From Patescibacteria group bacterium (GTDB lineage: Bacteria; Patescibacteriota; UBA1384; CAJBMM01), in contig JBAZWC010000001.1 in the NCBI GenBank assembly GCA_041660565.1, positions 302,481 to 366,480 of the forward strand: a DNA stretch of 64,000 bases, read 5' to 3'. The stretch's first letter is position 1. Each line of letters opens with the position of its first letter. Made by a program: the position numbers and the translations under genes. Shown one piece after another: positions 4,822 through 60,100 of the stretch. The notes beneath the pieces were generated by a model. That model did no database searches, was not told the origin of the DNA, and was given only the letters and a program-made list of their open reading frames with translations.

Positions 4822-4833
4822 ATTCGGGCTATG

Positions 4834-8630: not shown

Positions 8631-8656
8631 CTATGTCAAACTGACAAACCGGTGTT

Positions 8657-8725: not shown

Positions 8726-8739
8726 AAATGAAGGTGGAA

Positions 8740-42652: not shown

Positions 42653-42710
42653 ACCGCCCAACTCACGCCCGTGGAGCCATCCGGCTCTGCGGGTTGCCTT
42701 TTTTGAGACC

Positions 42711-42795
42711 AGTTAGGGGGCTTAGGGAATTTTAGGGAAGTTAGGGGTACCATCGGCCCTCCCAATGCCCCTAATCACCCCACCCCCCCTAACCA
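42711..42795 (+). repeat. TTAGGG/CCCTAA palindromic element E1
   Basis: G-rich arm (ttaggggg cttaggg..ttaggg..ttagggg) then C-rich arm (ccctaa units). Confidence 0.7.
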
Positions 42796-42798
42796 CCT

Positions 42799-44598
42799 TC
42801 AGTTCTTCAATAATTTTAGAAACACTTCGGTAGGAATATCTACCTTACCGATTCTTTTTAACCTTTTTTTACCGGCTTTTTGTTTGTCTAATAATTTATT
42901 TTTTCGAGTTACATCTCCACCATATAATTTGGCAGTAACGTTTTTGCCTACCGCCGGAATGTCTTCACGAGCGATTATTTTGCCGCCAATGGCTGCTTGC
43001 AACATCACCTCAAATAATTGGCGTGGGATTAAAGTTTTAAGTTTGGCTAAAATGATGCGGCCTTTTTCGATTGCGGTTGATCGGTGCACAATTTGACTAA
43101 GCGAATCTACTTCTTCGCCGCCGACTAGGATGTTCAGTTTAACCAAATCACCGGTGCGATATTCAAGCATCTCGTAGTTCATTGAGCCGTATCCCGAAGT
43201 AATGCTTTTAAGGCGATCGTAAAAGTCGACAATTAACTCAGAAATTGGCAACTGATATTTTAGAATGGCACGATCTTCATCTAAATAATCTAAGTTAACA
43301 TAGATGCCACGCTTGTTTCCCGCCATCTCCATTACCGCACCAATGTTACTTTTTGGCAGCACTATTTCTACCACTGCCCACGGCTCGGCTATTTCAGCAA
43401 TTTTAGTAACTTCTGGCAGTTCGGATGGGGTGTGGATAATGATGGTCGATTCGACACCGTCAGCTTGTTTGTTTATGGTGATTTGGTACGAAACACTGGG
43501 CGAAGTGGCAATTAAATCCAAATTATATTCGCGCTCTAACCGTTCTTTAACGATTTCCATATGTAATAAACCAAGAAAGCCGCATCTAAACCCAAATCCC
43601 AGCGCTTCAGAGACTTCCGGTTCATAAATTAACGCAGCGTCGTTTAGTTTTAGCTTGCCCAACGCTTCACGTAATTCGGGATATTGGTTTGCATCAACGG
43701 AGAAAATGCCAGCGTAAACCAGCGGCTTGACTTGACGATATCCTTCAAGCGCAGCTACATTTTGGTCTGATTCAAGCGTTACCGTATCACCAACGCGCGC
43801 CAAACTAACATCTTTGAAACCAGTGATAATATAGCCAATTTGCCCGGCACAGATTGTATTTGATGGTTTAAGAGTTGGCGAAAAATATCCCACCTCAATT
43901 ACGTCGGTTTCACTTTTGACCTGTATCATCCTGATTTTTTGATGCGCTTTTAACGCGCCACTGGTTATTCGAACATACGCAATCACCCCGCGATACGGGT
44001 CAAAAATGCTATCAAAAATGAGTGCCTTTAGCTCATTACTGGGATCAATTTTTGGAGCAGGAGTACGTTCAATTACGGCGGCTAGAATTTCATTTACGCC
44101 TTGACCAGTTTTTCCTGATGCAAATATAATTTCATCTTTAGAGATTCCGAGCAGTTTAACAATTTCTTCACTAACCTTTTCCGGCTCGGCTGATGGTAAA
44201 TCAATCTTATTGACTACCGGAATAATGGTTAAATTATGCTCCATTGCCATATACAAATTGGCCAGAGTTTGCGCCTCAATTCCTTGCGCCGCATCAACAA
44301 GGAGGATCGCGCCCTCAACCGCGGCCAAGCTGCGCGACACTTCGTAAGAGAAATCGACGTGTCCGGGGGTATCGATTAGATTTAGCTCATATTCCTGGCC
44401 TTGGAATTGGTAGTGCATTCGCACTGGTTGCAATTTGATGGTAATACCACGCTCGCGCTCGATATCCATAGTATCGAGAAGCTGTTCTTTCATTTCGCGC
44501 TTGGCTACGGTATTGGTTACTTCTAAAAGACGATCGGCAAGAGTGGACTTGCCGTGATCAATGTGTGCAATAATACAAAAGTTTCGAATATTGTTCAT
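42799..44598 (-). CDS. lepA: elongation factor 4 (LepA)
   Basis: GTPase motifs AHIDHGKST, DTPGH; LepA C-terminal domain. Confidence 0.9.
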   Translation of the reverse strand: MNNIRNFCIIAHIDHGKSTLADRLLEVTNTVAKREMKEQLLDTMDIERERGITIKLQPVRMHYQFQGQEYELNLIDTPGHVDFSYEVSRSLAAVEGAILLVDAAQGIEAQTLANLYMAMEHNLTIIPVVNKIDLPSAEPEKVSEEIVKLLGISKDEIIFASGKTGQGVNEILAAVIERTPAPKIDPSNELKALIFDSIFDPYRGVIAYVRITSGALKAHQKIRMIQVKSETDVIEVGYFSPTLKPSNTICAGQIGYIITGFKDVSLARVGDTVTLESDQNVAALEGYRQVKPLVYAGIFSVDANQYPELREALGKLKLNDAALIYEPEVSEALGFGFRCGFLGLLHMEIVKERLEREYNLDLIATSPSVSYQITINKQADGVESTIIIHTPSELPEVTKIAEIAEPWAVVEIVLPKSNIGAVMEMAGNKRGIYVNLDYLDEDRAILKYQLPISELIVDFYDRLKSITSGYGSMNYEMLEYRTGDLVKLNILVGGEEVDSLSQIVHRSTAIEKGRIILAKLKTLIPRQLFEVMLQAAIGGKIIAREDIPAVGKNVTAKLYGGDVTRKNKLLDKQKAGKKRLKRIGKVDIPTEVFLKLLKN

Positions 44599-45209
44599 TA
44601 ATTTACCACTGTTGCGGTTATTTGACCTTGCTCAAGCTTTAGATTTGTTATTTTACCAATAATTCGACTATTTATCAAGTTTGATAGCGAATCTGCTAAT
44701 CCGGCACGCACTTCGGTAGTCGCTAAAGGCAGCAACCGCACCCCAGCTACGGTAAGATCGTTTACACTGACAGTTAGCTTACCATTAGAATCAACCTTTG
44801 GGATCCAATAAAATATTAACGGCAGATCGGTAGGTGTGGTGTAAGTACCGGTAGTTTCTATTTGAGTGGCAGTTGTTTTGGACGAAAGGTTTTTGGTGTT
44901 TGGGATATTTAATTGAGTGATAATGTAGTTTATTTGACTATCGGTAATATAGACAAAATATTCTTGACTATTATTAGATGGTTTTGGCAGTATCACCTGA
45001 AACCATTTGGCCGAAAATGAGGTTGAGTTCCATGCTTTTTTGCTTAAGCTATCGCGAAATGGCACAATAATCCAGATTGTGAAAAATATTAGACCCATAA
45101 TTAGTAACACAATCAGCACAAACAAAGCCCACGGAGACAACCGCAAATAAGAATGCAAATTGGTTTTTTGGGTTTTTAGACTTGACATTTTGTAACCCTT
45201 TTGATACAT
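44598..45209 (-). CDS. hypothetical membrane-anchored protein
   Basis: Single N-terminal TM. Confidence 0.35.
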   Translation of the reverse strand: MYQKGYKMSSLKTQKTNLHSYLRLSPWALFVLIVLLIMGLIFFTIWIIVPFRDSLSKKAWNSTSFSAKWFQVILPKPSNNSQEYFVYITDSQINYIITQLNIPNTKNLSSKTTATQIETTGTYTTPTDLPLIFYWIPKVDSNGKLTVSVNDLTVAGVRLLPLATTEVRAGLADSLSNLINSRIIGKITNLKLEQGQITATVVN

Positions 45210-45212
45210 TAT

Positions 45213-45767
45213 CTATAGATTTGGACGTAGCGGTGCCGATTTACCTGAAGTCATTGCGACCTGGTATTTAAGCGCTGGACGTCCATTTTTTGTTGAAAAA
45301 CATTCCTTGTATATTGTTTCAAATGACAATATCAAGTCAGTTTTGTATTGCTTATGAAGTGTTTTAATCGCTCGGTCATGAGCCTCGGATAGCTTACCAA
45401 GGAGAGAGAAACTTACCATCGGATCAGGTATTTTTTTATCAGCGCATAAAGCATTTATAATTTTAATAATATTTTTTTCCTGACCAGGGTATTCTATATC
45501 TATGATGACATCAGGCTCATGTATCAAATCCGGTTTAAATAATAAATAACAGGCAGCACTAAAAACATAGATTACAAAATCTCGGGGCCGCCCTACCTGC
45601 CGAAAGATATCCTGCAACCGTCTTTTGGTGCGAGCAGATATCTTAACTGAACGAAACTGCTTGGACTTACCCATGTAAGATACACACGCCAAAACCGTGT
45701 CTTTTTGTGTTTGCTCAACTTTGCCCGATTGGTCAATATATATTTTCATAGAGGATTTATTCCTCAA
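45213..45767 (-). CDS. hypothetical protein
   Basis: ORF overlapping murJ start. Confidence 0.35.
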   Translation of the reverse strand: MRNKSSMKIYIDQSGKVEQTQKDTVLACVSYMGKSKQFRSVKISARTKRRLQDIFRQVGRPRDFVIYVFSAACYLLFKPDLIHEPDVIIDIEYPGQEKNIIKIINALCADKKIPDPMVSFSLLGKLSEAHDRAIKTLHKQYKTDLILSFETIYKECFSTKNGRPALKYQVAMTSGKSAPLRPNL

Positions 45768-47400
45768 GCTTTTTCTTCCTAATCAGCCAGCCAAGCTCTT
45801 CCATATTGAACCATTTTGCCATTAAGGCGTAGCTGCCAAGGCCAACCACCGCTGCCCCAAACGCCTGAATCATAATGCCAAGAACGGTTCTGGTGCCAAA
45901 TCCTTCAAACCCAAACGGCACAATATCATTCAAATTTAACCCATTGCCAATTATGCGTAGGGTGAGCCAAGATAAGGCTCCGGAGATAATGGCGATAAAG
46001 CTGATCGGCAAAATTCGACGGTACACCTTTGTCATATCACCCCTCCACTGCGACGGTAGCCAAATAATCATTAATACCGCTTGCACCCACATTCCAAAAC
46101 TATACGCCAGAGCCAGTGATGCCACATCATAACCAGATGCATTACTAAACCAAGACAGCTGAGGCAAAACAACCGCCGCGCCCACCGTGGCCAAACAACC
46201 AATAACGCTGGCGTACATTGGTTTCTTGGTGTCTTGCAAAGCATAAAACGCCCTGGCGGTGATAAATACTACCGCCTGAGCCACGAACGAGATGCAAAAC
46301 CAAGACAATGTGTTGATAGCGCGAATAGTATCTTCCCATGAAGTATGATGGTTAAGACCAATGTATAATCGCATAATTTGAGCGCGAAGCAAGAAGACTA
46401 AAATGGTAGCGGGTATTAGTACAAATAAGCTTACACGCAAGGTGCGGAGATAATAGTGCTGGTATTTGTCATGATCTTTTTCGGCTACGGCGTCGGTGAG
46501 CGTAGGGAAAACCGCGGTAGCCATCGATGAACCGAAAATCAGCGCCGGGGTAGTTTGAAAATTATTAGCAAAGTTAAAGATAGTCCATGCACCAGCGGAC
46601 ATCGTAGCAGCAATACGAGTAAATGATAACAGTACAATTTGCATCATCCCGAGTGATAATGTGCGCGGGATCATTAGCATCACCACTTTACCCACATTTT
46701 TATCAAACATATTTACTTTTGGATTTAATCTAATGCCCACTCCAATAAGCGATGGGAGCTGAACACCAAAGTGAAGCGCTGCGCCAACCACCACCGCCCA
46801 CGCCACCGCATTGATGCCATATTTTGGTAGCAGCAATGCGCCCACAATGATAGATAGATTATAAACCAGCGGCGCTACGCTATACGTAAAGAAACGACGA
46901 TGTGCGTTTAGCACGGCGGAAACTGTGTATGATAGACAGAAAAAGAATGGCGAAAGTAGCATAATTCGCGCCAAATTGATCGTTTCGGTTTGCCGCGCCA
47001 TGGTATTGACTGCGCTGAGTGGGGTAAGTAGCGGAATAATTATAGGCATTAGAAAAAACAAAATCACCAAGGCAATGGTGACAAAAAAAGTTAGCGTTCC
47101 CAAAACCGTATTTGCCATATTAGTAGCGTCGGATTGTGATTTGTTTTTGAGCAAATCGGTATAAATTGGAATAAATGCCGATGCAATTGCACCCAGTACC
47201 AGTAGATTAAAAATTAAATCTGGGATACGAAAGGCGGTAAAATACGGATCAAGCTGAGATAAAGATTGAGCACGGTTAGACAACAAAATATCCCGCAGCA
47301 ATCCAAGAACATTGCTTAAGAACAGTGTAATGGTCAACAAAACTGTCGCAGATTTTAAGCTGTGCTCACCGTTAACTAGACCTTTTATCCGATCAACCAT
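45757..47400 (-). CDS. murJ: lipid II flippase MurJ (MviN)
   Basis: MurJ N-terminal pattern, ~14 TM. Confidence 0.8.
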   Translation of the reverse strand: MVDRIKGLVNGEHSLKSATVLLTITLFLSNVLGLLRDILLSNRAQSLSQLDPYFTAFRIPDLIFNLLVLGAIASAFIPIYTDLLKNKSQSDATNMANTVLGTLTFFVTIALVILFFLMPIIIPLLTPLSAVNTMARQTETINLARIMLLSPFFFCLSYTVSAVLNAHRRFFTYSVAPLVYNLSIIVGALLLPKYGINAVAWAVVVGAALHFGVQLPSLIGVGIRLNPKVNMFDKNVGKVVMLMIPRTLSLGMMQIVLLSFTRIAATMSAGAWTIFNFANNFQTTPALIFGSSMATAVFPTLTDAVAEKDHDKYQHYYLRTLRVSLFVLIPATILVFLLRAQIMRLYIGLNHHTSWEDTIRAINTLSWFCISFVAQAVVFITARAFYALQDTKKPMYASVIGCLATVGAAVVLPQLSWFSNASGYDVASLALAYSFGMWVQAVLMIIWLPSQWRGDMTKVYRRILPISFIAIISGALSWLTLRIIGNGLNLNDIVPFGFEGFGTRTVLGIMIQAFGAAVVGLGSYALMAKWFNMEELGWLIRKKKLEE

Positions 47401-47460
47401 TTACCCTCATACATTTTGTTGTAGTAAGATCTATTTTACCTGAAAGAGAACAAAAAGACC

Positions 47461-47555
47461 AATAAGGGGGCGTAAGGGTTGTAAGGGCAGTTGGGGGTGT
47501 CATAACCTCCCCTAACATCCCAAACTCCCCTAAACTCCCTAATCGTCCCCTCCCC
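47461..47555 (+). repeat. TTAGGG/CCCTAA palindromic element E2 (abuts ftsH stop codon)
   Basis: gtaaggg..gtaaggg..ttggggg / cccctaa..ccctaa..ccctaa. Confidence 0.7.
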
Positions 47556-49343
47556 CTAGCTAAATAGTCCTTCAAACGTAGCTCGGTCAACTGATTCTTG
47601 TTCAAGCAACAACGCTGAAAGTTTGTCTAATACAGCGCGATTTTTAGAAAGCAATTTTTTAGCCATTAATTGCGCTTCGTCCACAATTTTGTAGACCTCT
47701 TTGTCGATTTTGGCTGCCACTTCTTCGGAATAATTGCGCTGCTCTGAAATTTCGCGGCCAAGGAAGATCATCTCTTCGTGCTCACCAAAAGTACGAGGCC
47801 CAAGTTCTTTACTCATACCGTAGCGCATCACCATATCTCGGGCAATTTTGGTGGCGTTTTTCAGATCATTTGACGCACCGGTGGTCATCTCATTAAATAT
47901 CAATTCTTCAGCCACCCAGCCACCCATCATCACCACTAAATCAGCCTTAAAATGATTTTCGCTGACATAATGGCGATCGTCCAGTGGAGTGGTTAAAGTA
48001 TATCCACCAGCCATACCACGCGGAATGATGGTGATTTTTTCTACCTTGTCGGCCTCTGGCATTAGTTGCGCCAAAACGGCATGACCGCTTTCGTGATATG
48101 CAGTCATTTTGCGCTCTGCGTCGGTATAACGATGTGATTTGCGCTCAGGCCCCATGGCCACGCGCTCTACCGCTTCACGGATATAATGCTGAGTAACAAT
48201 TTTTTTACCGTCTCTAACAGCTAAGATGGCCGCTTCATTAACCACATTCTTAAGATCGGCGCCAGAGAAACCGGTAGTGATGGCAGCAATACGAGCCAAA
48301 TCAATTTCTTTTGATAACGGCTTATTTTGAGAGTGAATTTCCAAAATTGCCACGCGCTCGTCTTTATTAGGCAAATTAACCATCACCCTACGATCAAATC
48401 GTCCGGGACGAAGCAAAGCAGGATCAAGCACGTCTGGACGGTTAGTTGCGCCCATAATAATCACGTTGGCTTCGGTTTCAAACCCATCCATTTCAACCAG
48501 AATTTGGTTTAAGGTCTGTTCGCGCTCATCATGACTACCGCCTAAGCCCGAGCCACGTTGTCGCCCAATAGCGTCTAATTCATCGATAAAAACGATACAC
48601 GGAGCGTTACGCTTGGCTTTTTGAAACAGATCGCGCACGCGGCTAGCGCCAACACCCACGAACATCTCCACAAATTCGGAGGCAGACATGGCAAAAAACG
48701 GTACGCGAGCTTCGCCGGCAACCGCTTTGGCCAGCATTGTTTTACCGGTTCCGGGAGGTCCAACCAAAAGAACGCCTTTGGGAATCTCGGCGCCCATCGC
48801 CAAAAACTTGCCAGGCGAGCGCAAAAATTCCACCACTTCTTCTAGTTCTTGCTTTGGTTCTACTAAACCGGCCACATCTTTAAAACTCAAATGCTTGTTA
48901 GATTCGTACGCCTTAACCTTAGATTTACCAAAAGACATCGCTTTCATATTTGAGCCCTGAGCTTGGCGCATCATAATGTAAAAGAAACCAATAATTAATA
49001 CCACCGGCACGATGGCAGAGAGCAGAGTAATCCACAGGCCGCTATTGCTGGATGGCTGAATATCTATGCTGACTTTATCTGGAGTGATATTATAGTCTTT
49101 AAGCTGAGCCGAGCTTTCTTTTTGTGATGTTAATTGGCTACCGTTTTTAAGCGTAGCGTTGACAGTATTTTCTCCAACAACCGTAATTTGCTTAACGTTG
49201 TTATTGGTTACTTCATTCGATATTTCTGAGATTGGGACAGTTTGAGAAGTGGCTTGGCGGGGGCGTAAATAACCAAACAAAGCTATGCCCACAAACAGGG
49301 CAATAAATATATAGAGAATTTGTTTTGAACAACCTTGTTTCAA
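47556..49343 (-). CDS. ftsH: ATP-dependent zinc metalloprotease FtsH
   Basis: AAA motifs [11 protein letters not shown]; HESGH zinc site. Confidence 0.9.
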
Positions 49344-49409
49344 CGTATCTCCTCGATGAGTTAATTGATAATGTTTAGTTATAATAGACGTAGTGTGGGG
49401 TCATAACGT

Positions 49410-49500
49410 ATTAAGCACTAAATTCTAAGCACTAAGCACTAAATAAATCCAAAATAAAAAATTCAAAAGTTTAGAATTTAGTATTTATAATTTAGAATTT
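49410..49500. repeat. TAAGCACTAAATTC / GAATTTAG repeat cluster
   Basis: taagcactaaattctaagcactaagcactaaat...tttagaatttagtatttataatttagaattt. Confidence 0.55.
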
Positions 49501-49526
49501 ATTTGCTATCGCGAGCGATAGCAAAT
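49501..49526. repeat. perfect 12-bp-stem hairpin atttgctatcgc-ga-gcgatagcaaat abutting tRNA-Lys 3' end
   Basis: Exact palindrome. Confidence 0.6.
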
Positions 49527-49604
49527 TGGTGGGTCGTCTGGGATTCGAACCCAGGACACCCTGCTTAAAAGGCAGGTGCTCTAACCAGGCTGAGCTAACG
49601 ACCC
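49527..49604 (-). tRNA. tRNA-Lys (anticodon TTT), CCA encoded
   Basis: GGGTCGT acceptor; anticodon stem CCTGC/GCAGG, loop CTTTTAA; TTCGAAT T-loop. Confidence 0.75.
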
Positions 49605-49649
49605 TAACGATAAAGATTATAACACAAAAGAAAGGGAATTGCCAAGACC

Positions 49650-49752
49650 GTTAGGGATTTTTAGGGAGTTTAGGGTTGTTAGGGTGGTTCCTTCCCTAAT
49701 TGGTCCCCCGCTCTCCCAATCACTCCAATCTCCCTAATTCCCCCAATTGCCC
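49650..49752 (+). repeat. TTAGGG/CCCTAA palindromic element E3
   Basis: ttagggatttttagggagtttagggttgttagggtggttccttccctaat...ccctaattcccccaa. Confidence 0.75.
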
Positions 49753-49773
49753 TATTTCTGTTATAATGGCACT

Positions 49774-50919
49774 ATGAAAATACTTGTTTGCACCGAAACC
49801 TATCTTCCAACCATTAACGGCGTCGTTAACTCAATTGAACTGTTTAGGCATCAACTTGAAAAAAATGGCCATCAAGTGGATATTGTCGCCCCACACTCTG
49901 CCGCCGAAAGCTTTAAGTCTAGATCTCACGTTTTTCGCCTACCATCGCTACCTCTGATCGGGCAGCCAACGCATCCGGTAGCATGGCCAAGCAAATCCCA
50001 CATCTCAGCCATCATCAGCGAAACCAAACCAGACGTTGTCCACTGTCAAGGTATGTTTGCCTGTGGCTGGCTGGGTCTAAAAGGTGCGCAAAAGGCCAAT
50101 TTGCCACATGTTTTAACTTATCACACTCATCTTGAGGGATATTCGCACTATGCCGGGCCATTATCGTTCTTAGCCAAACCAATTATGCGCTGGTGGACTA
50201 AAAAAATGTGCAACCAATTTGATTTGGTCATCACCCCATCCCCCAGCATGGCTAAGATGCTCAAGAGTTACAAAGTCAAAACCGACATTGTAGCGCTCCC
50301 AACCGGTATTGAGCTAAAGGATTACCGTTTTAATGATAAGAAAAAATTGCGAGCAATGCTTAAATTTAACCCAGATGAGGTTTATATTTTATCCGCCGGG
50401 CGGTTATCTGAAGAAAAAAATGTCAAACAATTATTAATCGATTTTGGGCGCATTCACGTGCGCAATCCTAAAGTCAAATTATTATTAGCAGGTGATGGCC
50501 CCGAGCGCAAAGCGTATGAAACGATAGTAGAAGCTAGAGGATTGCAATCGGTGGTTACGTTTTTGGGCGCACTAAAACACGAAGATCTAATAAATTACTT
50601 TGTTGCCTGTGATATATTTGCCTTTCCATCGCTAACAGACACCCAAGGCATCGTATTAATTGAAGCGATGGCGGCCGGATGTCCCAGCGTGGTGTACGAT
50701 ATGCTAGGCCCGGGCGATATTGTTAAGCACGAGGTAAACGGGTTAAAGGCAAAAGTGGGCACGGATCAGTTTTTCCAACACTTATTTGCGCTTGTTTCAG
50801 ACCAAGATTTAAGAGAAAAAATCAGCATCGGTGGCTTAAGAGACGTTAGAAACTACTCTATCGAAAAAACCGCTGATCAATTGCAACAGATCTACGCTGT
50901 TTTATGTAAGAGGCCATAG
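49774..50919 (+). CDS. glycosyltransferase family 4 (GT-B); leaderless-looking start 5 nt after TATAAT
   Basis: GT1/GT4 C-terminal motif ...GIVLIEAMAAGCPSVV...; start MKILVCTE. Confidence 0.8.
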   Translation: MKILVCTETYLPTINGVVNSIELFRHQLEKNGHQVDIVAPHSAAESFKSRSHVFRLPSLPLIGQPTHPVAWPSKSHISAIISETKPDVVHCQGMFACGWLGLKGAQKANLPHVLTYHTHLEGYSHYAGPLSFLAKPIMRWWTKKMCNQFDLVITPSPSMAKMLKSYKVKTDIVALPTGIELKDYRFNDKKKLRAMLKFNPDEVYILSAGRLSEEKNVKQLLIDFGRIHVRNPKVKLLLAGDGPERKAYETIVEARGLQSVVTFLGALKHEDLINYFVACDIFAFPSLTDTQGIVLIEAMAAGCPSVVYDMLGPGDIVKHEVNGLKAKVGTDQFFQHLFALVSDQDLREKISIGGLRDVRNYSIEKTADQLQQIYAVLCKRP

Positions 50920-50920
50920 G

Positions 50921-51018
50921 GTGTGTTAGGGAGTTTAGGGTTGTTAGGGTGGTTCCTTCCCTAATAGGTTCTACGCTCTCCCAACATCCCTAACGTCCCT
51001 AACTACCCTAACCGTCCT
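50921..51018 (+). repeat. TTAGGG/CCCTAA palindromic element E4 (45-bp core identical to E3)
   Basis: ttagggagtttagggttgttagggtggttccttccctaat shared with E3. Confidence 0.75.
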
Positions 51019-51088
51019 TTTCCTATTGACCACAACGACTACTTATTCCATACTATACTTATAGATCAAATAATGTGGGGCAGGATAA

Positions 51089-51613
51089 ATGGGCGCAACA
51101 TCACCAAGTTGGGACGCAGTAATTGTATTAGTTTACGTTATTGGTGTTGGATATAGTCTAATTTTGCATCGAGAACGAATTGCCGGGCAAATTGCCTCGG
51201 CCTATATTTCATTGGCCGTTACCTCGGTTATCACCACTCCGGTGTATAATTTTTTACATCATAACAGCTTCTTAATGAATCAACTTTGGGTACAAAATGA
51301 CGCCACAACGCAAATGGTTTCGGGTCTGTTGTTTCTTGCTTTAACCATCATTCTTTCCAGCTTTCTGTCGGTGATACCAACCGGGCGAAAATCTGACAGC
51401 CTGTCTATGTTTGAGTCTACTTTGTTTAGCTTTTTGTGGGTAACGTTGTTAATTTCAACAATACTATCATTCCTACCGGTGGACAGATTGGTTTTATTTA
51501 GCAATCAGTCCAAACTCATCACTCTAATTTGGCAATATCACACCGCTTGGTTAATTATCCCGGCGTTTTTGTTAATTTACTCCGGCTTTAGACGCGGGAA
51601 TCTTAATTATTAG
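51089..51613 (+). CDS. hypothetical integral membrane protein
   Basis: ~5 TM helices. Confidence 0.4.
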   Translation: MGATSPSWDAVIVLVYVIGVGYSLILHRERIAGQIASAYISLAVTSVITTPVYNFLHHNSFLMNQLWVQNDATTQMVSGLLFLALTIILSSFLSVIPTGRKSDSLSMFESTLFSFLWVTLLISTILSFLPVDRLVLFSNQSKLITLIWQYHTAWLIIPAFLLIYSGFRRGNLNY

Positions 51614-51714
51614 ACCAATTAGGGAAATTAGGGTCATTTGGGACATTAGGGGTTCTTTCCCTAATAGGTTCTACACTATCCCAATCCCCCTAATCACCCC
51701 AATCTCCCAAATCG
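51612..51714 (+). repeat. TTAGGG/CCCTAA palindromic element E5
   Basis: aattagggaaattagggtcatttgggacattagggg...ccctaat...cccctaatcaccccaatctccc. Confidence 0.75.
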
Positions 51715-51760
51715 TTTTCCTGTTGTAAAAAAACTATTTTTCGTTTATAATATGGTTTAG

Positions 51761-52054
51761 GTGATTATGAACAATTTACAACTAAAGCAAATCTGTTTGG
51801 AAATTCAAAGCAATTTGCGTTGTGTACATTGTGGCAAGCCATATCAGGCTAACAATATTCACCTACGTAGCGCTTTTAAGAACAATTACTTGTTTCATTT
51901 AGTTTGTGAAAATCATAGCGCTATGGCCACCATCACCGTGGTTGGCGAAAAATCACAAAACGTCTTAAAGGTAGTTACGCCGGATGATGTAATGCAATTT
52001 AGAACTCAACTGTCCAAGTTCAAGGGTGATTTTAACAAAGTTTTTAAAAAGTAA
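51761..52054 (+). CDS. hypothetical protein (CVHCG...)
   Basis: Promoter TTGTAA-17-TATAAT and RBS AGGTGA upstream. Confidence 0.4.
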   Translation: MIMNNLQLKQICLEIQSNLRCVHCGKPYQANNIHLRSAFKNNYLFHLVCENHSAMATITVVGEKSQNVLKVVTPDDVMQFRTQLSKFKGDFNKVFKK

Positions 52055-52177
52055 TTCCTCCTCAACCGCCCTACGGGCACCTTCTCCTCCAGAGGAGAAG
52101 GGTTCCAAGGTTTTTCCCTCTCCTCCCTGAGGAGAGGGTGGCTGGAAGCCGGGTGAGGAGCCGACATAAGGAATAAT

Positions 52178-52864
52178 ATGAGCCTACAACTAAACGCAGA
52201 TACCCGCAAAATAACTGGCAAAAAAGTTAAGTCTATTAGACGTGACGGTCTAATTCCATTGGTAATGTATGGAAAAGGCTTGCCAACTCATCACCTGCAA
52301 TCCAACGCCAAACTGTTCTCCAAGTTATTTAAAGAAAGCGGTACCTCTAGCTTAGTTGATATTGCTATTGAAGACGCCAAACCAATTAAAGCTTTAATCA
52401 AATCGGTCAGCCTTGATCCGGTATCCAATGAAATTCTTCACGCTGACTTGTTACAGGTAAATATGAAAGAAAAAATCCGCACCGAAATTCCAATTGAATT
52501 TGTGGGTGATTCCAGTGTAGTTACCGAGCAAGATGGTAAATTGGTGTTCAACTTAGACGCTCTTGAGATTGAATGTTTGCCAGACGATTTGGTACCAAAC
52601 TTTGAAGTAAATGTTTCATCTCTAACTGAATTTGATCAAGCAATTCACGTATCTGACATAAAAATCCCAGACGGCATGGAAATTCTAACCGATCCGGAAT
52701 TGGTAATTGTAGTTGCGCAGGCTCCGTTAACCGAAGCTGAACTTGAAGCCGAACTAGCAGAGCCAGAAAAGACCGAGGAAGAGGCAGTCGCTGAAATGGC
52801 CGCCGAAGAACCAGCCGCCGAAGGTGAAGAATTGGGGGAAACCAAAGACGATTTGGGTAATTAG
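52178..52864 (+). CDS. rplY: ribosomal protein L25 / general stress protein Ctc with acidic C-terminal tail
   Basis: L25/Ctc fold pattern (…RRDGLIPLVMYGKG…). Confidence 0.8.
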   Translation: MSLQLNADTRKITGKKVKSIRRDGLIPLVMYGKGLPTHHLQSNAKLFSKLFKESGTSSLVDIAIEDAKPIKALIKSVSLDPVSNEILHADLLQVNMKEKIRTEIPIEFVGDSSVVTEQDGKLVFNLDALEIECLPDDLVPNFEVNVSSLTEFDQAIHVSDIKIPDGMEILTDPELVIVVAQAPLTEAELEAELAEPEKTEEEAVAEMAAEEPAAEGEELGETKDDLGN

Positions 52865-52946
52865 GGGCATTTGGGACATTAGGGTTCTTACCCTAATGAG
52901 TACCCCGCACCCCCAATCACCCTAATCTCCCTAATTCCCCAAACGT
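52855..52946 (+). repeat. TTAGGG/CCCTAA palindromic element E6 (overlaps rplY stop)
   Basis: ttaggggcatttgggacattagggttcttaccctaat...ccctaatctccctaattcccc. Confidence 0.75.
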
Positions 52947-52969
52947 TTTCTTTATGCTATATTGGCATT

Positions 52970-54736
52970 ATGAAACAAATACGCACAAACACACCCAAAA
53001 CCAAAGAAATGTCTTCTCAAATTGAGAAAATGCGCCACACTCTAAGCCACTGCTTAGCGGCTGCGGTGCTAAACTTGTATCCCAAAACCAAGCTGGGTAT
53101 AGGCCCGGTAATTGAAAACGGGTTCTATTATGATTTTCTGTTCGAATCTCCCCTATCACCCGACGATCTAATCAAAATCGAAAACGAGATGCGATCAGTT
53201 ATCAAACAAAAAATGTCTTTGCGCCAATTTAATTTGAGCCGCGATGAAGCATTGGCAAAGGAAAAAGATCAACCATTCAAATTTGAATTGATTAAAGACC
53301 TAGGCGATAAGGAATTAAGTTTTTATAGCTTGGAATCCCCCAATCAACCCAATTCTTTCGTTGACCTCTGCGCTGGGCCGCACCTTGAATCTACCGACCA
53401 AGTTGGCGCGTTTAAGCTAACCCATCTTGCCGGCGCATACTGGAAAGGTGACGAAAAAAATCAGATGCTCACCCGTATCTACGGCGTAGCGTTTGAGACC
53501 CAGGAAGAACTAGACCAATACCTCAAGCAAATCGACGAAGCCACCAAACGCGATCATCGCAAATTAGGTGTAACGCTTGATCTATTTACCTTTTCCGACC
53601 TCGTTGGTGCCGGTTTGCCATTGTGGACACCAAAAGGGACTATTGTTCGCGATTTACTTGATGATTTTGTGTGGAGTTTGCGTCGTGCTAAGGGATACGA
53701 AAAAGTGGAAATCCCCCACATCACCAAAAAAGATTTATATGTTAAAAGTGGGCACTGGGATAAGTTTAAGGACGAATTATTTAGAATTAACACCCGTGAA
53801 GGCCACGAATTTGCGATGAAGCCAATGAACTGCCCACACCACACTCAAATTTTTGCCCGCAAAAGTTGGAGCTACAAAGAAATGCCGCAACGCTACGCCA
53901 ACACTACGTTTGTGTATCGTGATGAGCAAACCGGTGAATTAAACGGACTGTCCCGCGTTAGAGCCATCACTCAAGACGATGCCCACGTGTTTTGCCGCGA
54001 AGACCAGATAAAAGACGAGATACTGGCAATCTGGGATATTGTAGATGATTTTTATGGTAAATTTGGCATCAAAACAGCTGCTCGTCTATCACTTGGCGAC
54101 CAATCTCAACCAGATAAATATCTTGGTGATGCCAAAACCTGGGATAAAATGGAAAACACGTTACGAGAAGTAGTCAAAATCAAAAAAACCACCGCATCTG
54201 AGGCTATTGGTGAAGCGGCGTTTTACGGGCCAAAAATTGACTTTATGGGTATTGATTCCTTGGGCCGAGAGTGGCAAGTGGCAACCATCCAACTGGATAT
54301 GAATATGCCAACGCGATTTGGCTTGAGTTTCACCAATGCTGACGGCCACGATGAGACCCCAATTATGATTCACGCCGCCATTATGGGCTCAATTGAACGA
54401 TTCATGTCCATTTTAATTGAACATTACGCCGGCGTATTTCCGGTCTGGCTAGCGCCGGTGCAAGCGGTGGTGGTACCAATTGCAGATCGGCATAACGGCT
54501 ATGCCACTACCATTGTCGATCAGTTAAAAGCAAGTGGAGTTCGGGTTAACCTAGACCTCAGACGTGAGACTTTGGGCAAAAGAATCCGAGATCTAGAAAT
54601 GCAAAAAGTGCCTTTTGTCTTGGTTATTGGCGATAAAGAAGTCGAATCAAAGAAAATTGCCGTCCGCTCCCGTGATGATGGCGACCTCGGAGCAAAAAGC
54701 GTAAAAGAACTTATAAAGACCAATTTTCAATTTTAA
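52970..54736 (+). CDS. thrS: threonyl-tRNA synthetase (588 aa, short N-terminus)
   Basis: Class II aaRS motifs, editing-domain HxxxH region, anticodon-binding domain. Confidence 0.9.
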   Translation: MKQIRTNTPKTKEMSSQIEKMRHTLSHCLAAAVLNLYPKTKLGIGPVIENGFYYDFLFESPLSPDDLIKIENEMRSVIKQKMSLRQFNLSRDEALAKEKDQPFKFELIKDLGDKELSFYSLESPNQPNSFVDLCAGPHLESTDQVGAFKLTHLAGAYWKGDEKNQMLTRIYGVAFETQEELDQYLKQIDEATKRDHRKLGVTLDLFTFSDLVGAGLPLWTPKGTIVRDLLDDFVWSLRRAKGYEKVEIPHITKKDLYVKSGHWDKFKDELFRINTREGHEFAMKPMNCPHHTQIFARKSWSYKEMPQRYANTTFVYRDEQTGELNGLSRVRAITQDDAHVFCREDQIKDEILAIWDIVDDFYGKFGIKTAARLSLGDQSQPDKYLGDAKTWDKMENTLREVVKIKKTTASEAIGEAAFYGPKIDFMGIDSLGREWQVATIQLDMNMPTRFGLSFTNADGHDETPIMIHAAIMGSIERFMSILIEHYAGVFPVWLAPVQAVVVPIADRHNGYATTIVDQLKASGVRVNLDLRRETLGKRIRDLEMQKVPFVLVIGDKEVESKKIAVRSRDDGDLGAKSVKELIKTNFQF

Positions 54737-54775
54737 ATTTCCAATTTTTAATGAAAAGATAGCCAATTTTTAAAT

Positions 54776-54838
54776 GACTAAATAAGGAACCATTTAAAAT
54801 TTAATCATTCGGTACTCATTCATTAATAATTTAAAATT
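54776..54838. repeat. ~65-bp repeat, inverted partner of 39541-39610
   Basis: See 39541. Confidence 0.6.
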
Positions 54839-54883
54839 ATTATTGTCTCCCAATTAATCCCATCAATCCAATTGAGAATAACT

Positions 54884-56359
54884 ATGAGTAACGCAACAGA
54901 CATTTTGCAGCTAATCAAACTTGAAGAAACGCGCCAACAAGAAGGCATGGAGCTAATTCCGTCTGAAAATTACGCGTCTAAGAACATTCGCGGCGCTTTG
55001 GGCTCGGTTTTAACCAATAAATATTCCGAAGGCTATGCTGGCGCACGTTATTACGGTGGCCAAGAGGTCATTGACCAAATTGAAACCAAGGCCATTGAAC
55101 TTGCTCGGCAACTGTTCAAATATCAATTTGTAAACGTGCAACCATATTCCGGCACACCGGCCAATTTAGCGGTTTATAATGCTTTGTTACAACCGGGCGA
55201 TACTATACTTTCGATGGCGCTTGATATGGGCGGCCACCTAAGCCACGGACACAAACTTAGTTTACCGGGAAAACTTTATAATATTGTTAGTTATGGACTA
55301 CATGAAGAAAATTCGAAAAACGAAATACGAAATACAAAACAAATCCAAAATTCAAAAAAAGAAATTCAAAAAAATGGTACTTTTCGTGCTTCGGATTTCG
55401 AATTTAGTGCTTATGATGCCGGACGCATAGATTACAATCAAGTTGCAGAATTAGCCAAAACCCATAAGCCAAAACTGATTGTTGCTGGTGGTAGTGCGTA
55501 TCCTTATATAATAGATTTTAAGAGATTCAGAGAAATTGCCGACAGCGTTGGTGCTATTTTGATGGTAGATATGGCGCATATTGCCGGACTAGTGGCTGGT
55601 GGCGTGCACCCATCACCCTACCCGTATGCGCACGTTGTAACCTCAACCACCCATAAGACAATGCGCGGGCCAAGAGGTGGATTTATTTTGACCGATGATG
55701 AAGAAATGGCAAAAAAAATTAACCGCGCAGTTTTTCCCGGAATTCAAGGCGGCCCGCACGATAATAACATTGCCGGTATTGCCATTTGCTTTGCCGAAGC
55801 CCTAGATCCAGAGTTTAAGGACTATGCCAAACAAGTTATTCTTAACGCAAAAGCCTTAGCAGATACTGTAGGGGCACCGTCCTCGCTACCGCATCGGATG
55901 ACCGGTGGTCAACATGAATTGCCCGAGGTTCCAGCCATGGCGGGCGGACATATGAGTCCGCCCCTACACCCCCTAAAAAGAAATTCCTTCAATTCAAATT
56001 TCAAATTTCAAATTTCAAATTGTCCTCCCTCTAATTGGAACCCAACCACAGAGAATCACCTACTCTTACTAGACGTCACGCCTTTTGGCCTAGGTGGCTT
56101 ACGCGCCCAAGATCTACTAGACAGCGTTGGCATTACTGTAAATAAACAAGTTTTGCCGGGTGATACCAGAAAACCGGCCGACCCATCGGGTATTCGGCTT
56201 GGATCACCGGCAATGACTACCAGAGGATTCAAAGAAGAACAATTTAACCAAACCGGAAAATGGATTATTGACGTATTATCAAATCCGGAAGACCTTAAGT
56301 TGCACCGCGCTATTCACCAAGAGGTAAAAGCACTGTGTAAAAGGTTCCTGGTGCCTTAG
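54884..56359 (+). CDS. glyA: serine hydroxymethyltransferase with two in-frame insertions derived from repeat elements (~38 aa at 55305-55425; ~43 aa at 55912-56045)
   Basis: SHMT signature incl. PLP-Lys region TSTTHKTMRGPRGG; protein ~75 aa longer than typical; inserts carry GAATTTAGTGCTT repeat and hairpin ggcgggcggacatatgagtccgcccc + (ttcaaat)4. Confidence 0.85.
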   Translation: MSNATDILQLIKLEETRQQEGMELIPSENYASKNIRGALGSVLTNKYSEGYAGARYYGGQEVIDQIETKAIELARQLFKYQFVNVQPYSGTPANLAVYNALLQPGDTILSMALDMGGHLSHGHKLSLPGKLYNIVSYGLHEENSKNEIRNTKQIQNSKKEIQKNGTFRASDFEFSAYDAGRIDYNQVAELAKTHKPKLIVAGGSAYPYIIDFKRFREIADSVGAILMVDMAHIAGLVAGGVHPSPYPYAHVVTSTTHKTMRGPRGGFILTDDEEMAKKINRAVFPGIQGGPHDNNIAGIAICFAEALDPEFKDYAKQVILNAKALADTVGAPSSLPHRMTGGQHELPEVPAMAGGHMSPPLHPLKRNSFNSNFKFQISNCPPSNWNPTTENHLLLLDVTPFGLGGLRAQDLLDSVGITVNKQVLPGDTRKPADPSGIRLGSPAMTTRGFKEEQFNQTGKWIIDVLSNPEDLKLHRAIHQEVKALCKRFLVP

Positions 56360-56458
56360 GGGAATTAGGGACATTAGGGTGATTGGGGGGACAAGGTACC
56401 ATTAGGGTTTTGGTTCCCCCAATGTCCCAAATTTCCCTAATGCCCCCAACCGTCTTTC
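56357..56458 (+). repeat. TTAGGG/CCCTAA palindromic element E7 (perfect G4 motif GGGGaattaGGGacattaGGGtgattGGGGGG); overlaps last codons/stop of 56437..56982
   Basis: Direct reading. Confidence 0.75.
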
Positions 56459-56982
56459 CTCTTTTGGTCTTTTCTGGCATTAAAAAGTTTTTCACTATAA
56501 CCGCCTTCAGTTTTAAACTTTTCTTCTAGGGAAAGAAGCTGTTTATCTAATAAAAAGGTGGTTAAACTTACAAAGGTTACTAACATATTAGCCGCTAGAG
56601 TTGGGTCATTCGGAAAATTAGGTGTATTCAAGGTGTTTTCAGTTACCCAAATTGCCCTAAACTCTCTAAAAACCCTTACATTTTGGTCGTCCTTGCTAAA
56701 CAAAGGCAAATTTCTCTGTCTCAGAAAATCTTGGAAGTCTAACAACAGCTCCTCTTGGGACGCTTTTGCAACGCCCACCAGTTTTATATAACTCTTTAAT
56801 GACTTTTCCATATAACCTTCAGCTATGTTTTGCCTACCGCTGCGCGCCGCTTGCACCATTTGTTCAACCAGCCTACTGTTTTCTCTGCTATTAACAAACT
56901 GTTTGCAAAATTTGACTGTTAAATCATATACAACAGTCGCCATCATAAAGGAAGCTAGTGTTTTATAACCAGGCTGGGCCAT
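56437..56982 (-). CDS. four-helix-bundle protein of the 23S rRNA intervening-sequence protein family
   Basis: Motif SGRQNIAEGYMEKS...ASQEEL matches NIAEG...S.EL signature. Confidence 0.55.
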   Translation of the reverse strand: MAQPGYKTLASFMMATVVYDLTVKFCKQFVNSRENSRLVEQMVQAARSGRQNIAEGYMEKSLKSYIKLVGVAKASQEELLLDFQDFLRQRNLPLFSKDDQNVRVFREFRAIWVTENTLNTPNFPNDPTLAANMLVTFVSLTTFLLDKQLLSLEEKFKTEGGYSEKLFNARKDQKRKDGWGH

Positions 56983-56991
56983 GGTTCCTTT

Positions 56992-57112
56992 CTTAGGGGA
57001 ATTAGTAGGCCAATTGGGGGAATTAGGGTCATTTGGGTCATTGGGGGTTCCACCCCTAATTGGTTTATTGTTCCCCCAATCTCCCTAATCTCCCCAAGCC
57101 CCCTAACCGTTT
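56992..57112 (+). repeat. TTAGGG/CCCTAA palindromic element E8 (abuts stop of giant gene)
   Basis: ttaggggaattagtaggccaattgggggaattagggtcatttgggtcattggggg...ccctaat...ccctaaccg. Confidence 0.75.
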
Positions 57113-57115
57113 CTC

Positions 57116-60100
57116 TTATTTAACTCTAACGGTTCCGCCGCCGTTTACACGCACCGAACCAGAGTTTACCCGCACCCCAGAGTAGTTTGCCGCTTTAGTA
57201 CTAGCGGTGTCATCTACCGGAAAACCGGCCAGACCGGCAGGCCAGGCACCGGCATCAGTGCCAACAATGGCAAGACCCCCTAAGCCCAAACCTAAGCTAC
57301 TTACGCTATTTGAAGGCAAACTGGAATTTGCCGTGGTGTAAAAAACAATTTGTTTTTGCGTAGCTAACGAAATACTGGTTACCCCACTTGCCGTGCCGAC
57401 CCAAAGGGCAGATTGGTTCTTAACCGGTGAGCCGGTGGACCAGGTGGGATCGTCTGAGGCAACGGAAGAGTTGGCACCAAGAGTGCCGTTGTACCCTAAG
57501 CCAGAGGAATCAGCCGCAACTTGCCCGGAGCCTTCATTAAGCTTCCACCAACCGAGAATATTGGCGGATGGATTATCAGTCCTACCAAGCCCGCCGTTAT
57601 AGAGGGCAGCTACTTCGGCACCAGTTATTGCCCTTGAGTAGATACGCACATCATCAATTGATCCATTAATAAATGCAGAAGATCGGCCAATTTCTAAGGT
57701 ACCATTAGCCGTATTCAAAGTTTCAGTTGCAGTCCCGGAAACCATTCCATCCATATAAATTGTTTGGCTGCTTGCGCCACTAACAAGTACAATATGATGC
57801 CAAGCACCATCATCGACACTATTCGTCGTGGTGGCAGAACCGGCATCGGTACCATCAACAGCGCAGTTCATTTTATGTGCAGTCACACCAGCAATTTTAC
57901 ATATTCGGTTGGCAGCCCACCTAAGGGCTCCGCCACTGTTTGTGGTAGTTTTAATCCAGAATGATTCAGTTATCGCCGATTGACCTGGAATTGATCCGGT
58001 GATGACATAGTCAGATCCATCAAAGGTTAAATCTTCCCCCAAATCCCCTGTTTTCATCAACCCCACCGACGTAGCACTGGCCGAGGTGCCACCGATAGCA
58101 GGAGAAACGCGCATGGGATCGGTAGTGGTAACGGTAGCGTCAGCACCCAGAGTACCGTTGTTGGCGTTACCGGAAGAATCGTACACGGTCTGCCCATTTA
58201 TCCCATTAGCCCCACCGTACCGTTCGTCCAGGTGCCAAAGGCCAATGGTGTTTGCATCTGTGGTAAAAGGAACAACAGTGGGAGTAAAATATTTCGTATT
58301 AAGAACTGTCCCCGAATAACGTATTGAATTAGAAATACGCACTTCATCAATTGGACCGTTAAACCTTCCGGCTGAGGGACTACCACTTCCAATATATAGC
58401 GTTTCAGATGAGGTGTATTTGATATTTGCATTCATGTTACAATTGGCACGTAAAGTTCCATCCACAAATATCCTATATTTAAGATTGGATTGATCAATAG
58501 TACCGGCAACATGATGCCATACGCCATCGGCCTGTGAGCTATTAGTAGGACATTCTTCAGTTACCCCATACTGATTCACAAAAAATAAGGTGACTGTGCC
58601 ATTTGAAGACCATCTGTTCATCCGAAAGCCGTACGCACCATAGTTTAATGGGTAAATAGAACTACCAGATGTTGTATTAAACCACATCTCTATAGTAAAA
58701 ACGGTTGGTCTCAAACCGGCATTACCTGCAACCGGAACATAATCATCAGTTCCGTCAAACATAAGCGCGTTACCAAATGACTTGCTGTTGTAGTTTGATG
58801 TTCCGGTGGAGCCAGTGTTAACGTAATGCTCCACAAAACCACTAGCTTGGGTAGAGTGTTCCTGGATGGTTTCAACACCTAAGTTCGTACCAAGAGCAAC
58901 AGTGTTGCTGGTATTATCTGCAAGAGATGTACCGGTGGTGACAGATATGGAATTAATGGTATTGGAACGCAGAGCAGGGGTGGAAGCGGTGGAATAGGTA
59001 ACATCTGCTGTTCCTACTTGGTCGGCGGTGTCTGCATTTACAGCTGTGTAAACATCTAACCCGGCGTGAGTGGTATTAGCACCGTATACCGTGCCAGCAT
59101 TGGTCATAAATACTTTGGTATAGGTGTCTGAGGCGGTTGGGGCATATTTGTACATTGGTGAATCGGTGGGTGCATTGTTGTTAAGACCTATTCCGGTTAA
59201 GTTATTCAAGACATTTAAGTCAGAGGCGGTGGCAAGCGCAACGTATTGTTTTGGAGGAGCTGTGCCTATTACAGTAGGTGAAATATCATTAACGGTAGTG
59301 GAGTTAAGAGCAGTTCCACCAGCTGCGGGATACGCCGAGGCGGCACCACGATTAGCTAGAGTAGATTGATAAATTGAATTGCCAGATGAAGTAAATCGTA
59401 AAGCGGTATCATCATCTAACCGAATATCGGTTAAACCATCAGCGCTGGCAACGTAAATACGACCGTTTAGAGCTTTTACCTTGAGTGTATTATTTGAGCC
59501 GATTAAATTATTACTGGCTTTGGCAAAGCGCGCCCACAGTTTGTTAGTTGATGCGTCTATGATGTCGAGGCCACCGTTGTTGGCCACCAAATTAGTTTTT
59601 GAAGGATAACTACGGAGTTTACCACGGGTTGTACCAAAGGATTCGATAGCCAAGGCGTTGATGCGGTAGGTGTCGTAGGTGGAATAGTTTCCTTGAGGGT
59701 TCCAACGTACGTAGATTCCGGTGGCACCAAGCTGTTGGAGGGAGGAAGAGATCTGTTGTCGGGTGGACCAGGCGTCTAAGGTGGGAGTGGGGCCACCGGT
59801 AGAACCTCGGTACTGGTAGAAGACCGGAGTTTCTTGCTCCACGATGGCGGAGTAAGCGGCTACCGTGGGCTCTGTTGTGGCGTGGAGGAGAGAGTTGTTG
59901 GTGACCCAGTTGGAGGTTGAGTTGAAGCCAAAGTTAGTAAGGGTACCATTGTTGCCTGAGCCGGATGAGTCTACGGCGGTGGTTCCGGCAGCGGTGGTAT
60001 CGTCTAGTTTCCACCAACCAACTAGGCCGGAGTTGGAGACATAGGGAGTGTTGGTGTAAAGAGCTGATGCTTCTGTAGCGCTAATAGATCGACTGTATAT

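Follow-up and report, generated by a model that had tools for sequence, protein, structure and literature searches.

The 64-kb stretch of Patescibacteria DNA analysed here (the window) holds, between 42.6 and 57.1 kb, eight related repeats (E1 to E8), which are best read as copies of one non-coding palindromic repeat whose arms are TTAGGG/CCCTAA arrays with a unit every 9 nt. They probably represent a lineage-specific, locally spread miniature hairpin repeat, similar to REPINs, miniature inverted-repeat transposable elements (MITEs) or intervening sequences (IVSs) lacking an open reading frame (ORF), and tied to a gene for a four-helix-bundle-suffix protein; its function we infer. This reading rests on observations of the family itself, its architecture and clustering, its association with the gene, and a constraint at the nucleotide level on a copy that lies in frame within that gene. 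Small palindromic repeats are common in bacteria, and another family of them would by itself be ordinary. The elements belong to a known kind of bacterial repeat; what stands out, and is unexpected, is that a hexamer array is coupled to a single orphan protein family, with an in-frame copy held against synonymous drift. A literature search on TTAGGG intergenic palindromes, MITEs of Patescibacteria and the four-helix-bundle-suffix family (TIGR04258, PF05635) returned nothing on an association between repeat and gene.

The elements are real and lie far beyond chance. The motif pair TTWGGGNNNTTWGGG (TTWGGGN3TTWGGG) occurs 24 times in the window, each time within an element or a further copy inside a gene, against 0.06 expected from shuffled sequences. 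A profile of the eight copies, scanned over the 64 kb, recovers all eight and one weak copy, and nothing more. Alignment, profile and motif counts agree with the sequence-only reading of this stretch, in which eight related palindromic elements had been noticed, and the profile has refined their coordinates (Table 1). Logan contigs of the same organism (SRR18595301) carry identical sequence. Each element is an imperfect palindrome of ~105-120 bp, built from a short head, four to five T-T-(A/T/G)-G-G-G units at a 9-nt period, a loop, four to five CCCTAA-type units and a tail. The loop consists of a small TTAGGG-loop-CCCTAAT hairpin and ~14 nt in six elements; this central hairpin, first attributed to all eight, is absent from E1 and E2. 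All 16 termini approximate AAGACSR-TTAGGG. The conserved motif reported at the end of the right arm is indeed present, but it is the inverted complement of the head and not a separate tail. Head and reverse-complemented tail share AAGACSR-TTAGGG and the arms are complementary at the hexamers, which corresponds to the terminal inverted repeats of a MITE. The hexamers are conserved, with an identity figure that is partly built in by the way units were picked, and the spacers are not, the two arms agreeing at 39% of spacer positions, near chance. The identical core shared by E3 and E4 measures 40 bp rather than the 45 bp first given. Every element folds alone into a long interrupted hairpin on both strands (-29 to -50 kcal/mol), with hexamers as stems and 3-nt spacers as internal loops.

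Table 1. Position, strand, form and setting of the repeat copies and of the four-helix-bundle-suffix gene in the window.
Feature	Position	Strand	Form	Setting
E1	42702..42807	+ (46.8 vs 27.7 bits)	short form: 4 TTAGGG, loop, 3-4 CCCTAA, no mini-hairpin	convergent gap hyp117 (+)/lepA (-); 9-nt overlap with lepA stop
E2	47453..47557	undecidable (33.8 vs 33.6 bits)	short form, TAAGGG-type units	between murJ (-) start and ftsH (-) stop; 2-nt overlap with ftsH stop
E3	49642..49761	+	long form with central TTAGGG-loop-CCCTAAT mini-hairpin	divergent gap tRNA-Lys (-)/GT4 (+); no stop codon touched, unlike the other seven
E4	50907..51027	+	long form; folding z = -5.7	13-nt overlap with GT4 (+) stop; upstream of hyp174 (+)
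E5	51609..51727	+	long form	overlaps hyp174 (+) stop
E6	52843..52957	+	long form; folding z = -4.6	provides last 22 nt and stop codon of rplY (L25); ends 12 nt before thrS start
E7	56345..56464	-	long form, inverted relative to E3-E6 and E8	convergent gap; 15-nt overlap with SHMT (+) stop; encodes last 9 codons and stop of four-helix-bundle-suffix gene (-)
E8	57003..57121	+	long form, extra outer unit from 56993	between giant-gene (-) stop (6-nt overlap) and four-helix-bundle-suffix gene (-) start, reaching that gene's ribosome-binding site
Ninth copy	56599..56681	-	degenerate	in frame within four-helix-bundle-suffix gene; encodes helix3-helix4 linker NVRVFREFRAIWVTENTLNTPNFPNDP
Four-helix-bundle suffix domain protein gene	56437..56982	-	181 aa; PF05635 / TIGR02436 + TIGR04258	flanked by E7 and E8, inverted

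The elements are clustered. Among gaps of at least 60 nt, 8 of the 11 in the 42.6-57.1 kb region are occupied, against 0 of 21 in 1-42.6 kb (Fisher p = 1.6e-5); since 49344-49526, 52055-52177 and 54737-54871 are empty, the earlier statement that every intergenic gap carries an element is too strong. All copies lie within 14 kb of the four-helix-bundle-suffix gene, the only non-housekeeping gene among them, in a window that is otherwise housekeeping (gyrAB, infB, obg, suf operon, queA, lepA, murJ, ftsH, rplY, thrS, glyA). An integron-like cassette array, with gene and repeat alternating in one orientation, is ruled out by the core housekeeping genes and the lack of an integrase among the window ORFs scanned. 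Seven elements overlap or abut a stop codon. The stops of ftsH, rplY, the four-helix-bundle gene and the giant gene had already been seen to touch elements, and those of lepA, the GT4 glycosyltransferase gene, the 174-aa ORF (hyp174) and glyA (serine hydroxymethyltransferase, SHMT) are likewise provided by them. In this minimal genome of the candidate phyla radiation, repeats make up ~1 kb of a 15-kb stretch of housekeeping genes and furnish eight genes with their stop codons.

Element ends also fall within a few bases of promoters. The -35 box of tRNA-Lys stands immediately left of the first TTAGGG unit of E3, inside the profile bounds, the extended -10 box of the GT4 gene is at the right end of the same element, and a promoter-like TTGTAA-17-TATAAT begins within the right end of E5 (51723). 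Copies would thus appear to land in the few tolerated bases between one stop codon and the next promoter. At 49758-49777 (GT4) and 52955-52972 (thrS), the extended -10 boxes TGTTATAAT and TGCTATATT end 6-7 nt before the ATG, and no Shine-Dalgarno sequence is present, which suggests that the mRNAs of these two genes may be leaderless and start directly after an element.

A position at gene ends could also be expected of host cis-regulatory hairpins selected at gene boundaries as bidirectional terminators, mRNA 3'-end stabilisers or RNase III sites, with the resemblance to the arrays being incidental or secondary. This explanation appears rather unlikely. The location of seven of the eight elements at gene 3' ends speaks for it, as do the good folding on both strands, the T-rich tail that follows the C arm in several elements, and the scarcity of canonical stem-plus-U-tract terminators, with one clear gene-end case to the left of E1. 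However, E3 occupies a divergent gap in which there is nothing to terminate, the T-rich tail of E8 is on the wrong side for the minus-strand giant gene, and 21 other gaps of the window, operon ends included, have no element. The full elements do not have the short G+C-rich stem and U tract of intrinsic terminators, and a consensus scan calls the mini-hairpin of E8 alone (57040-57060). Moreover, what is conserved is sequence rather than pairing, a relative at 65% identity has no element, and the association with one gene across phyla would be left unexplained. The terminator left of E1 (42667-42700; 12-bp G+C-rich stem, TTTTTT) is a canonical one for hyp117, the 117-aa plus-strand ORF immediately left of E1, so that the E1 gap is already served. 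For a hairpin repeat that spread locally, the reading preferred here, transcripts of either strand would fold into interrupted hairpins of ~40 bp that end or process them, and each copy may then act as a terminator, 3' stabiliser or RNase III substrate, like the stems bordering S23p-type IVSs. A functional-RNA strand test, comparing G-U with A-C asymmetry and plus- with minus-strand folding energies, gave no consistent bias.

Orientation was read from the asymmetric centre by leave-one-out scoring against a profile of the five clearest copies. Six elements are plus, E7 is inverted (73.7 vs 58.9 bits; E6 aligned with the reverse complement of E7 scores 96 vs 42) and E2 is ambiguous. The six of seven that share an orientation are not a significant excess, and orientation is independent of gene direction, E8 being plus in a minus-strand context. 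According to the earlier proposal, every element has its G-rich arm on the plus strand and all share a single orientation. Apart from the inversion of E7, this observation is uninformative, because the reverse complement of a palindrome of the form (TTAGGG)n-loop-(CCCTAA)n is again G-arm-first.

The same symmetry bears on the idea that the elements are G-quadruplex (G4)/i-motif switches or replication-strand-specific signals, which is very improbable. The G4 motif that had been recognized in the G arms does fit the canonical pattern at the sequence level (four runs of three or more G with loops of 1-7 nt), and all 15 G3N1-7 x4 motifs of the window are inside elements. These are distributed over both strands (8 plus, 7 minus), seven elements having an equivalent motif on the minus strand, and therefore cannot mark one replication strand. 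Cumulative GC skew falls continuously through the gene-strand switch at ~49.6 kb, with no switch at the elements, and the replication-strand signal suggested earlier does not hold up. A replication origin at this strand switch is ruled out by the same continuous fall. Quadruplexes with 6-nt loops, such as these, are weak. As the complementary arm lies 10-30 nt away and gives a hairpin of -30 to -50 kcal/mol, the hairpin should outcompete G4 and i-motif structures.

The gene at the centre of the association encodes a four-helix-bundle suffix domain protein, with both the bundle and the suffix domain above cut-off (TIGR04258, 50.1 bits, cut-off 40; TIGR02436, 39 bits, cut-off 24; PF05635, 36.2 bits, cut-off 33.8). 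Residues 22-80 correspond to the PF05635/TIGR02436 bundle and residues 127-174 to the TIGR04258 suffix. An AlphaFold2 model with a predicted local distance difference test score (pLDDT) of 91 has three bundle helices, a structured 35-residue linker, a long fourth helix and a C-terminal helix. The bundle matches 2gsc with a template modelling (TM) score of 0.85, and the best structural matches are the S23p-family proteins XCC0516 (2gsc) and BT_0352 (2rld), with five chains each. More than 8000 sequence clusters match the family, which is a very large orphan family related to the S23p proteins of 23S rRNA IVSs and to Avd of diversity-generating retroelements. No mention of the family model was found in the literature searched, and PADLOC gave no lead for the gene and its neighbours of unknown function. 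The repeat family would be evolutionarily tied to genes of this type (the 23S-rRNA-IVS/S23p/Avd fold family), which appear to carry the TTAGGG array in the helix3-helix4 linker and very often beside the gene as well.

Over 32 homologues, the linker has the consensus K.D..VR.FR.FR..W...LNTPNLPN.P, encoded by DNA of the form (N-TT AGG G-NN) x3-4 followed by (NCC CCT AAT) x3. Codon tests were carried out on nine Patescibacteria genes with DNA. Arginine is encoded by AGG in 22 of 31 linker codons compared with 17 of 83 elsewhere in these genes (p = 1e-6), the phenylalanine that precedes it is TTT in all 17 linker cases, and the residue that follows is nearly always one whose codon begins with G (V, E, G, A, D). 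Motif units number 56 in these linkers, whereas synonymous recoding of the peptides according to the codon usage of the genes themselves gives an expectation of 14.7, with 28 as the highest count among 5000 trials. This codon bias and the excess over recoding indicate that the in-frame array is maintained as a nucleotide sequence, in addition to whatever constraint acts on the protein. A recent insertion as the origin of the in-frame copy is ruled out, the linker having the same length in homologues without the motif and being a confidently modelled part of the fold. One homologue (P0219) has an extra CCCWWA array in the helix1-helix2 loop (L254:10102-10125), which encodes the insertion 'KDPNFPN' and resembles a second in-frame array within a single gene.

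The association extends beyond the window. In the same genome, elements stand on both sides of the paralogue P0122 (L243, a 3.4-kb Logan contig), which also has an in-frame copy and a partial array 560 bp downstream. Six further Patescibacteria homologues were chosen by protein similarity alone and examined with 10 kb on either side. All six carry the in-frame array, and in four (L244, L248, L249 and L250) a TTAGGG array precedes the start codon by no more than 140 bp, in one case as a full palindromic element. No array occurs elsewhere in these 20-kb loci, save one CCCTAA x3 array in L248 (10716-10739), ~170-220 bp downstream of the stop and inside the argS coding sequence, where it encodes ...TLNTLKSLK.... 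It is complementary to the upstream array of that locus (duplex -44.7 vs -23.2 +/- 4.0 for shuffles). In L244:9519-14751, a 69%-identity homologue and its upstream palindromic element lie between dciA and recF-dnaN-dnaA, near the likely replication origin region.

The relatives searched for the family, as the sequence-only reading had recommended, include homologues in Patescibacteria, Bacteroidota, UBP6 and Kiritimatiellae with arrays. A TTAGGG-N3-4 x3 pattern, run over contigs of one genome per species, found 120 bacterial loci, nine of which encode a homologue. In Bacteroides, Alistipes, Muribaculaceae, UBP6 and Kiritimatiellae, long tandem 9-mer arrays with TTAGGG, TTAAGG, TAAGGA or CCCTAA units immediately flank the gene, either on one side or on both; the linkers of these proteins have the same length and no motif. 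TTAGGG/TTAAGG recurs even where the homologues beside it share no more than 35-40% identity. In Alistipes and Tidjanibacter, numerous loci contain solo palindromic arrays built in the same way, and the ~8 kb examined at each include no such gene. Rikenellaceae TTAGGG arrays often adjoin short tandem arrays of other units (AATTGTC, GTGTAACA and CAACTGACA; L018:7050-7110, L013:3900-3960, L113:1700-1790 and further Alistipes/Tidjanibacter loci), which suggests that these genomes hold a wider repertoire of periodic short-motif arrays. In the Parcubacteria metagenome-assembled genome bin.460, solo elements lie between ftsE and ftsX and three occur in tandem after ftsX (L017:856-940, 2134-2318; L042:10-109), so that, judged from these contigs, dispersal has occurred in at least one other Patescibacteria lineage. 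Among IMG/VR relatives, one distant homologue was found, with no arrays. A metagenome scan with the loose pattern ATTAGGGNNRGAACCN{0,3}CYAA gave no true element among the 120 random matches listed.

Comparison with the nearest relative points to a lineage-specific origin of the copies in the window. The window is part of a 516-kb contig from an uncultured member of the Patescibacteria, and for the threonyl-tRNA synthetase (ThrRS) encoded there the protein collection offers no relative that exceeds 65% identity. The nearest relative with DNA, at this 65%, keeps the four-helix-bundle gene, glyA, thrS and rplY, with the four-helix-bundle gene adjoining that of SHMT. It has no TTAGGG element in any gap and no linker motif, from which the window elements are read as gains of this lineage, not ancient regulatory sites. 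Between thrS and rplY, the same relative has a different repeat with at least five hairpins on CACGCTAAAGCGTG-like and GCTTTAGC-like cores (L252:4038-4352). In the present genome, the array would have left the vicinity of the gene and been copied within ~14 kb, mostly in the same orientation, the copies probably being duplicated from gene-proximal arrays. Such an event would amount to a local burst of an ORF-less derivative, like a REPIN/MITE or an ORF-less intervening sequence.

The conserved hexamers with variable spacers, and the recurrence of the hexamer beside distant homologues, suggest a sequence-specific reader of the array, and the obvious candidate is the gene's own product. Under this proposal the four-helix-bundle-suffix protein would itself be a sequence-specific reader of the hexamer array. 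A wider model is possible and is put forward tentatively: four-helix-bundle-suffix proteins may be sequence-specific readers of (TTAGGG N3)n arrays carried in their own coding sequence and 5' flank, either autoregulating or propagating a minimal hairpin-bounded cassette; in some lineages, ORF-less copies would have spread to nearby spacers, where the protein would control hairpin formation and hence termination or processing of housekeeping transcripts. If true, the model gives the family a function and a nucleic-acid ligand, for which TTAGGG/UUAGGG repeats at 9-nt spacing are a concrete candidate. The family would then also stand for a class of repeats coupled to a protein, a 'REPtron' lacking a transposase, and the coupling links these proteins mechanistically to the long-known and unexplained ORF-bearing intervening sequences of 23S rRNA.

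A related explanation, in which the arrays are operator or regulon sites, is less probable again and on balance unlikely. Here a ring-shaped oligomer of the protein would bind four to five hexamers, set apart by 3 variable bases, on single-stranded RNA or DNA in the manner of TRAP, competing with the hairpin and switching its own gene and those neighbours that have a copy. TRAP recognizes 11 GAG/UAG triplets with 2-3 nt spacers in the Bacillus trp leader RNA, and the likeness lies in motifs at fixed spacing, non-conserved spacers and an overlapping alternative hairpin; there is no homology, and TRAP serves as an analogy for a ring oligomer reading an array. The picture of a TRAP-like ring on four to five repeats may be attractive, and it is consistent with the conservation of hexamers over spacers, the four to five units per arm, the arrays upstream of and inside the gene in many genomes, the motif kept beside 35-40%-identical homologues and the five chains of both closest solved structures. 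On the other hand, unit number ranges from 2 to 13 in Bacteroidota arrays, no recognised nucleic-acid-binding domain is found in the protein, and part of the hexamer identity stems from unit picking.

Several known systems resemble the elements, the closest precedent being, by analogy, the intervening sequences of 23S rRNA, followed by REP/RAYT and MITE-like repeats. S23p-type IVSs have complementary borders, are cut by RNase III and are regarded as selfish; ORF-less forms of ~100 nt exist, and the transfer mechanism is unknown (Coxiella, Leptospira, Salmonella; PMC4990558). IVSs with an S23p (PF05635) ORF share the protein fold family with the gene studied here, and their ORF lies between complementary sequences that pair into a long stem, as is seen in L248 and L254. 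In contrast, the elements are not in rRNA, their arms are hexamer arrays rather than unique sequence, and each flanking element in the window is a complete hairpin by itself, so that the gene stands between two hairpins. The insertion sites in helix 25 or 45 of 23S rRNA do not apply, as the window has no rRNA gene. In L254:1037-1531, a perfect 22-bp inverted repeat composed of CAATT/AATTG units, CACAATTAACAATTAGCAATTT / AAATTGCTAATTGTTAATTGTG, encloses a plain 120-aa four-helix-bundle gene that has no suffix domain (duplex -36.1 vs -13.4 +/- 2.9). By analogy, this cassette is IVS-like, with a different motif and a place outside rRNA.

Repetitive extragenic palindromic (REP) sequences and bacterial interspersed mosaic elements (BIMEs), together with REP-associated tyrosine transposases (RAYTs), form 'REPtrons' and REPINs, which are also dispersed intergenic imperfect palindromes, mostly at gene 3' ends, with a small gene between two inverted copies and many solo copies. 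The present elements are 3-5 times longer, consist of 9-nt periodic hexamer arrays and are clustered locally, and the gene they flank is of the four-helix-bundle-suffix type and not a Y1/HUH enzyme. It is highly improbable that a RAYT (Y1 transposase) moves them as classical REP/BIME elements, or that they are MITEs derived from an ordinary insertion sequence (IS) elsewhere in the genome. They do form an intergenic palindromic family, and in another relative (P0003 contig, ERZ1426769; genes 2662-3243 and 3498-4745) a 193-aa PF01797 (Y1_Tnp) transposase gene stands beside glyA, between glyA and a giant gene, in the position of the window's four-helix-bundle-suffix gene. At a further locus, a faint Y1_Tnp match lies 7 kb from a four-helix-bundle-suffix gene. 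However, units of 105-120 bp with AAGACSR-TTAGGG termini differ from the 20-40 bp palindromes with a GTAG/CGTC head that define REPs, and the window ORFs that were scanned contain no PF01797 or DDE domain. In both instances of a gene between inverted copies, that gene is of the four-helix-bundle type (PF05635/TIGR04258), and neither the window nor L243 yielded a parent IS combining these termini with a transposase.

MITE-like repeats (Correia/NEMIS, ERIC/IRU, RUP and Rickettsia palindromic elements) are likewise non-coding, ~100-150 bp long, with inverted termini and RNA hairpins, and insert beside or into gene ends; the Rickettsia elements also occur in frame within genes, as the linker copy does. 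Unlike these, the elements have neither a target-site duplication nor a parent IS that could be found, and their 9-nt periodicity and the cross-phylum conservation of the motif do not characterise those families. Four roles had been suggested from the outset, namely bidirectional terminators, G4/i-motif structures, strand-specific signals and a novel MITE. The last fits best, in that the repeats are dispersed, lineage-specific and non-coding with inverted termini, and the strand-specific role is the one left without support. An Rfam scan of the window at gathering and E-value thresholds gave three tRNAs and no family matching the elements, and blastn against phages and plasmids gave no matching record.

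A number of results weigh against a mobile hairpin repeat coupled to the gene. No direct repeat that could be a target-site duplication flanks the 16 termini, and the scanned ORFs of the window revealed no domain of a transposase, integrase, Y1/HUH enzyme or reverse transcriptase. Hairpin formation is at most a candidate for the selected property, since its pairs hardly vary at all and yield a covariation term of zero. As for the coupling, the linker is confidently modelled and structured (pLDDT ~95), and homologues with equal linker length and no motif exist, so that part of the linker conservation is at the protein level. Two of the six similarity-chosen Patescibacteria loci have no flanking arrays, nor do three pattern-ascertained Patescibacteria loci with internal arrays. 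The pattern-found cases, those in Bacteroidota included, were ascertained through the motif and show co-location, not frequency. In the one unbiased Bacteroidota record (a Prevotella nigrescens replicon), the gene is followed by two TAGGG/CCCTA hairpins rather than by a clean 9-mer array.

Away from the elements, the left end of the window (54-9201) contains two Fic-domain genes, a Bro-N gene and a NYN-domain gene. Higher G+C (49-53%) is found at 2-6 kb, and an 843-nt gap without a long ORF extends from 5614 to 6456. Possibly, this left-end stretch is an island of mobile or defence type that has no relation to the repeats.

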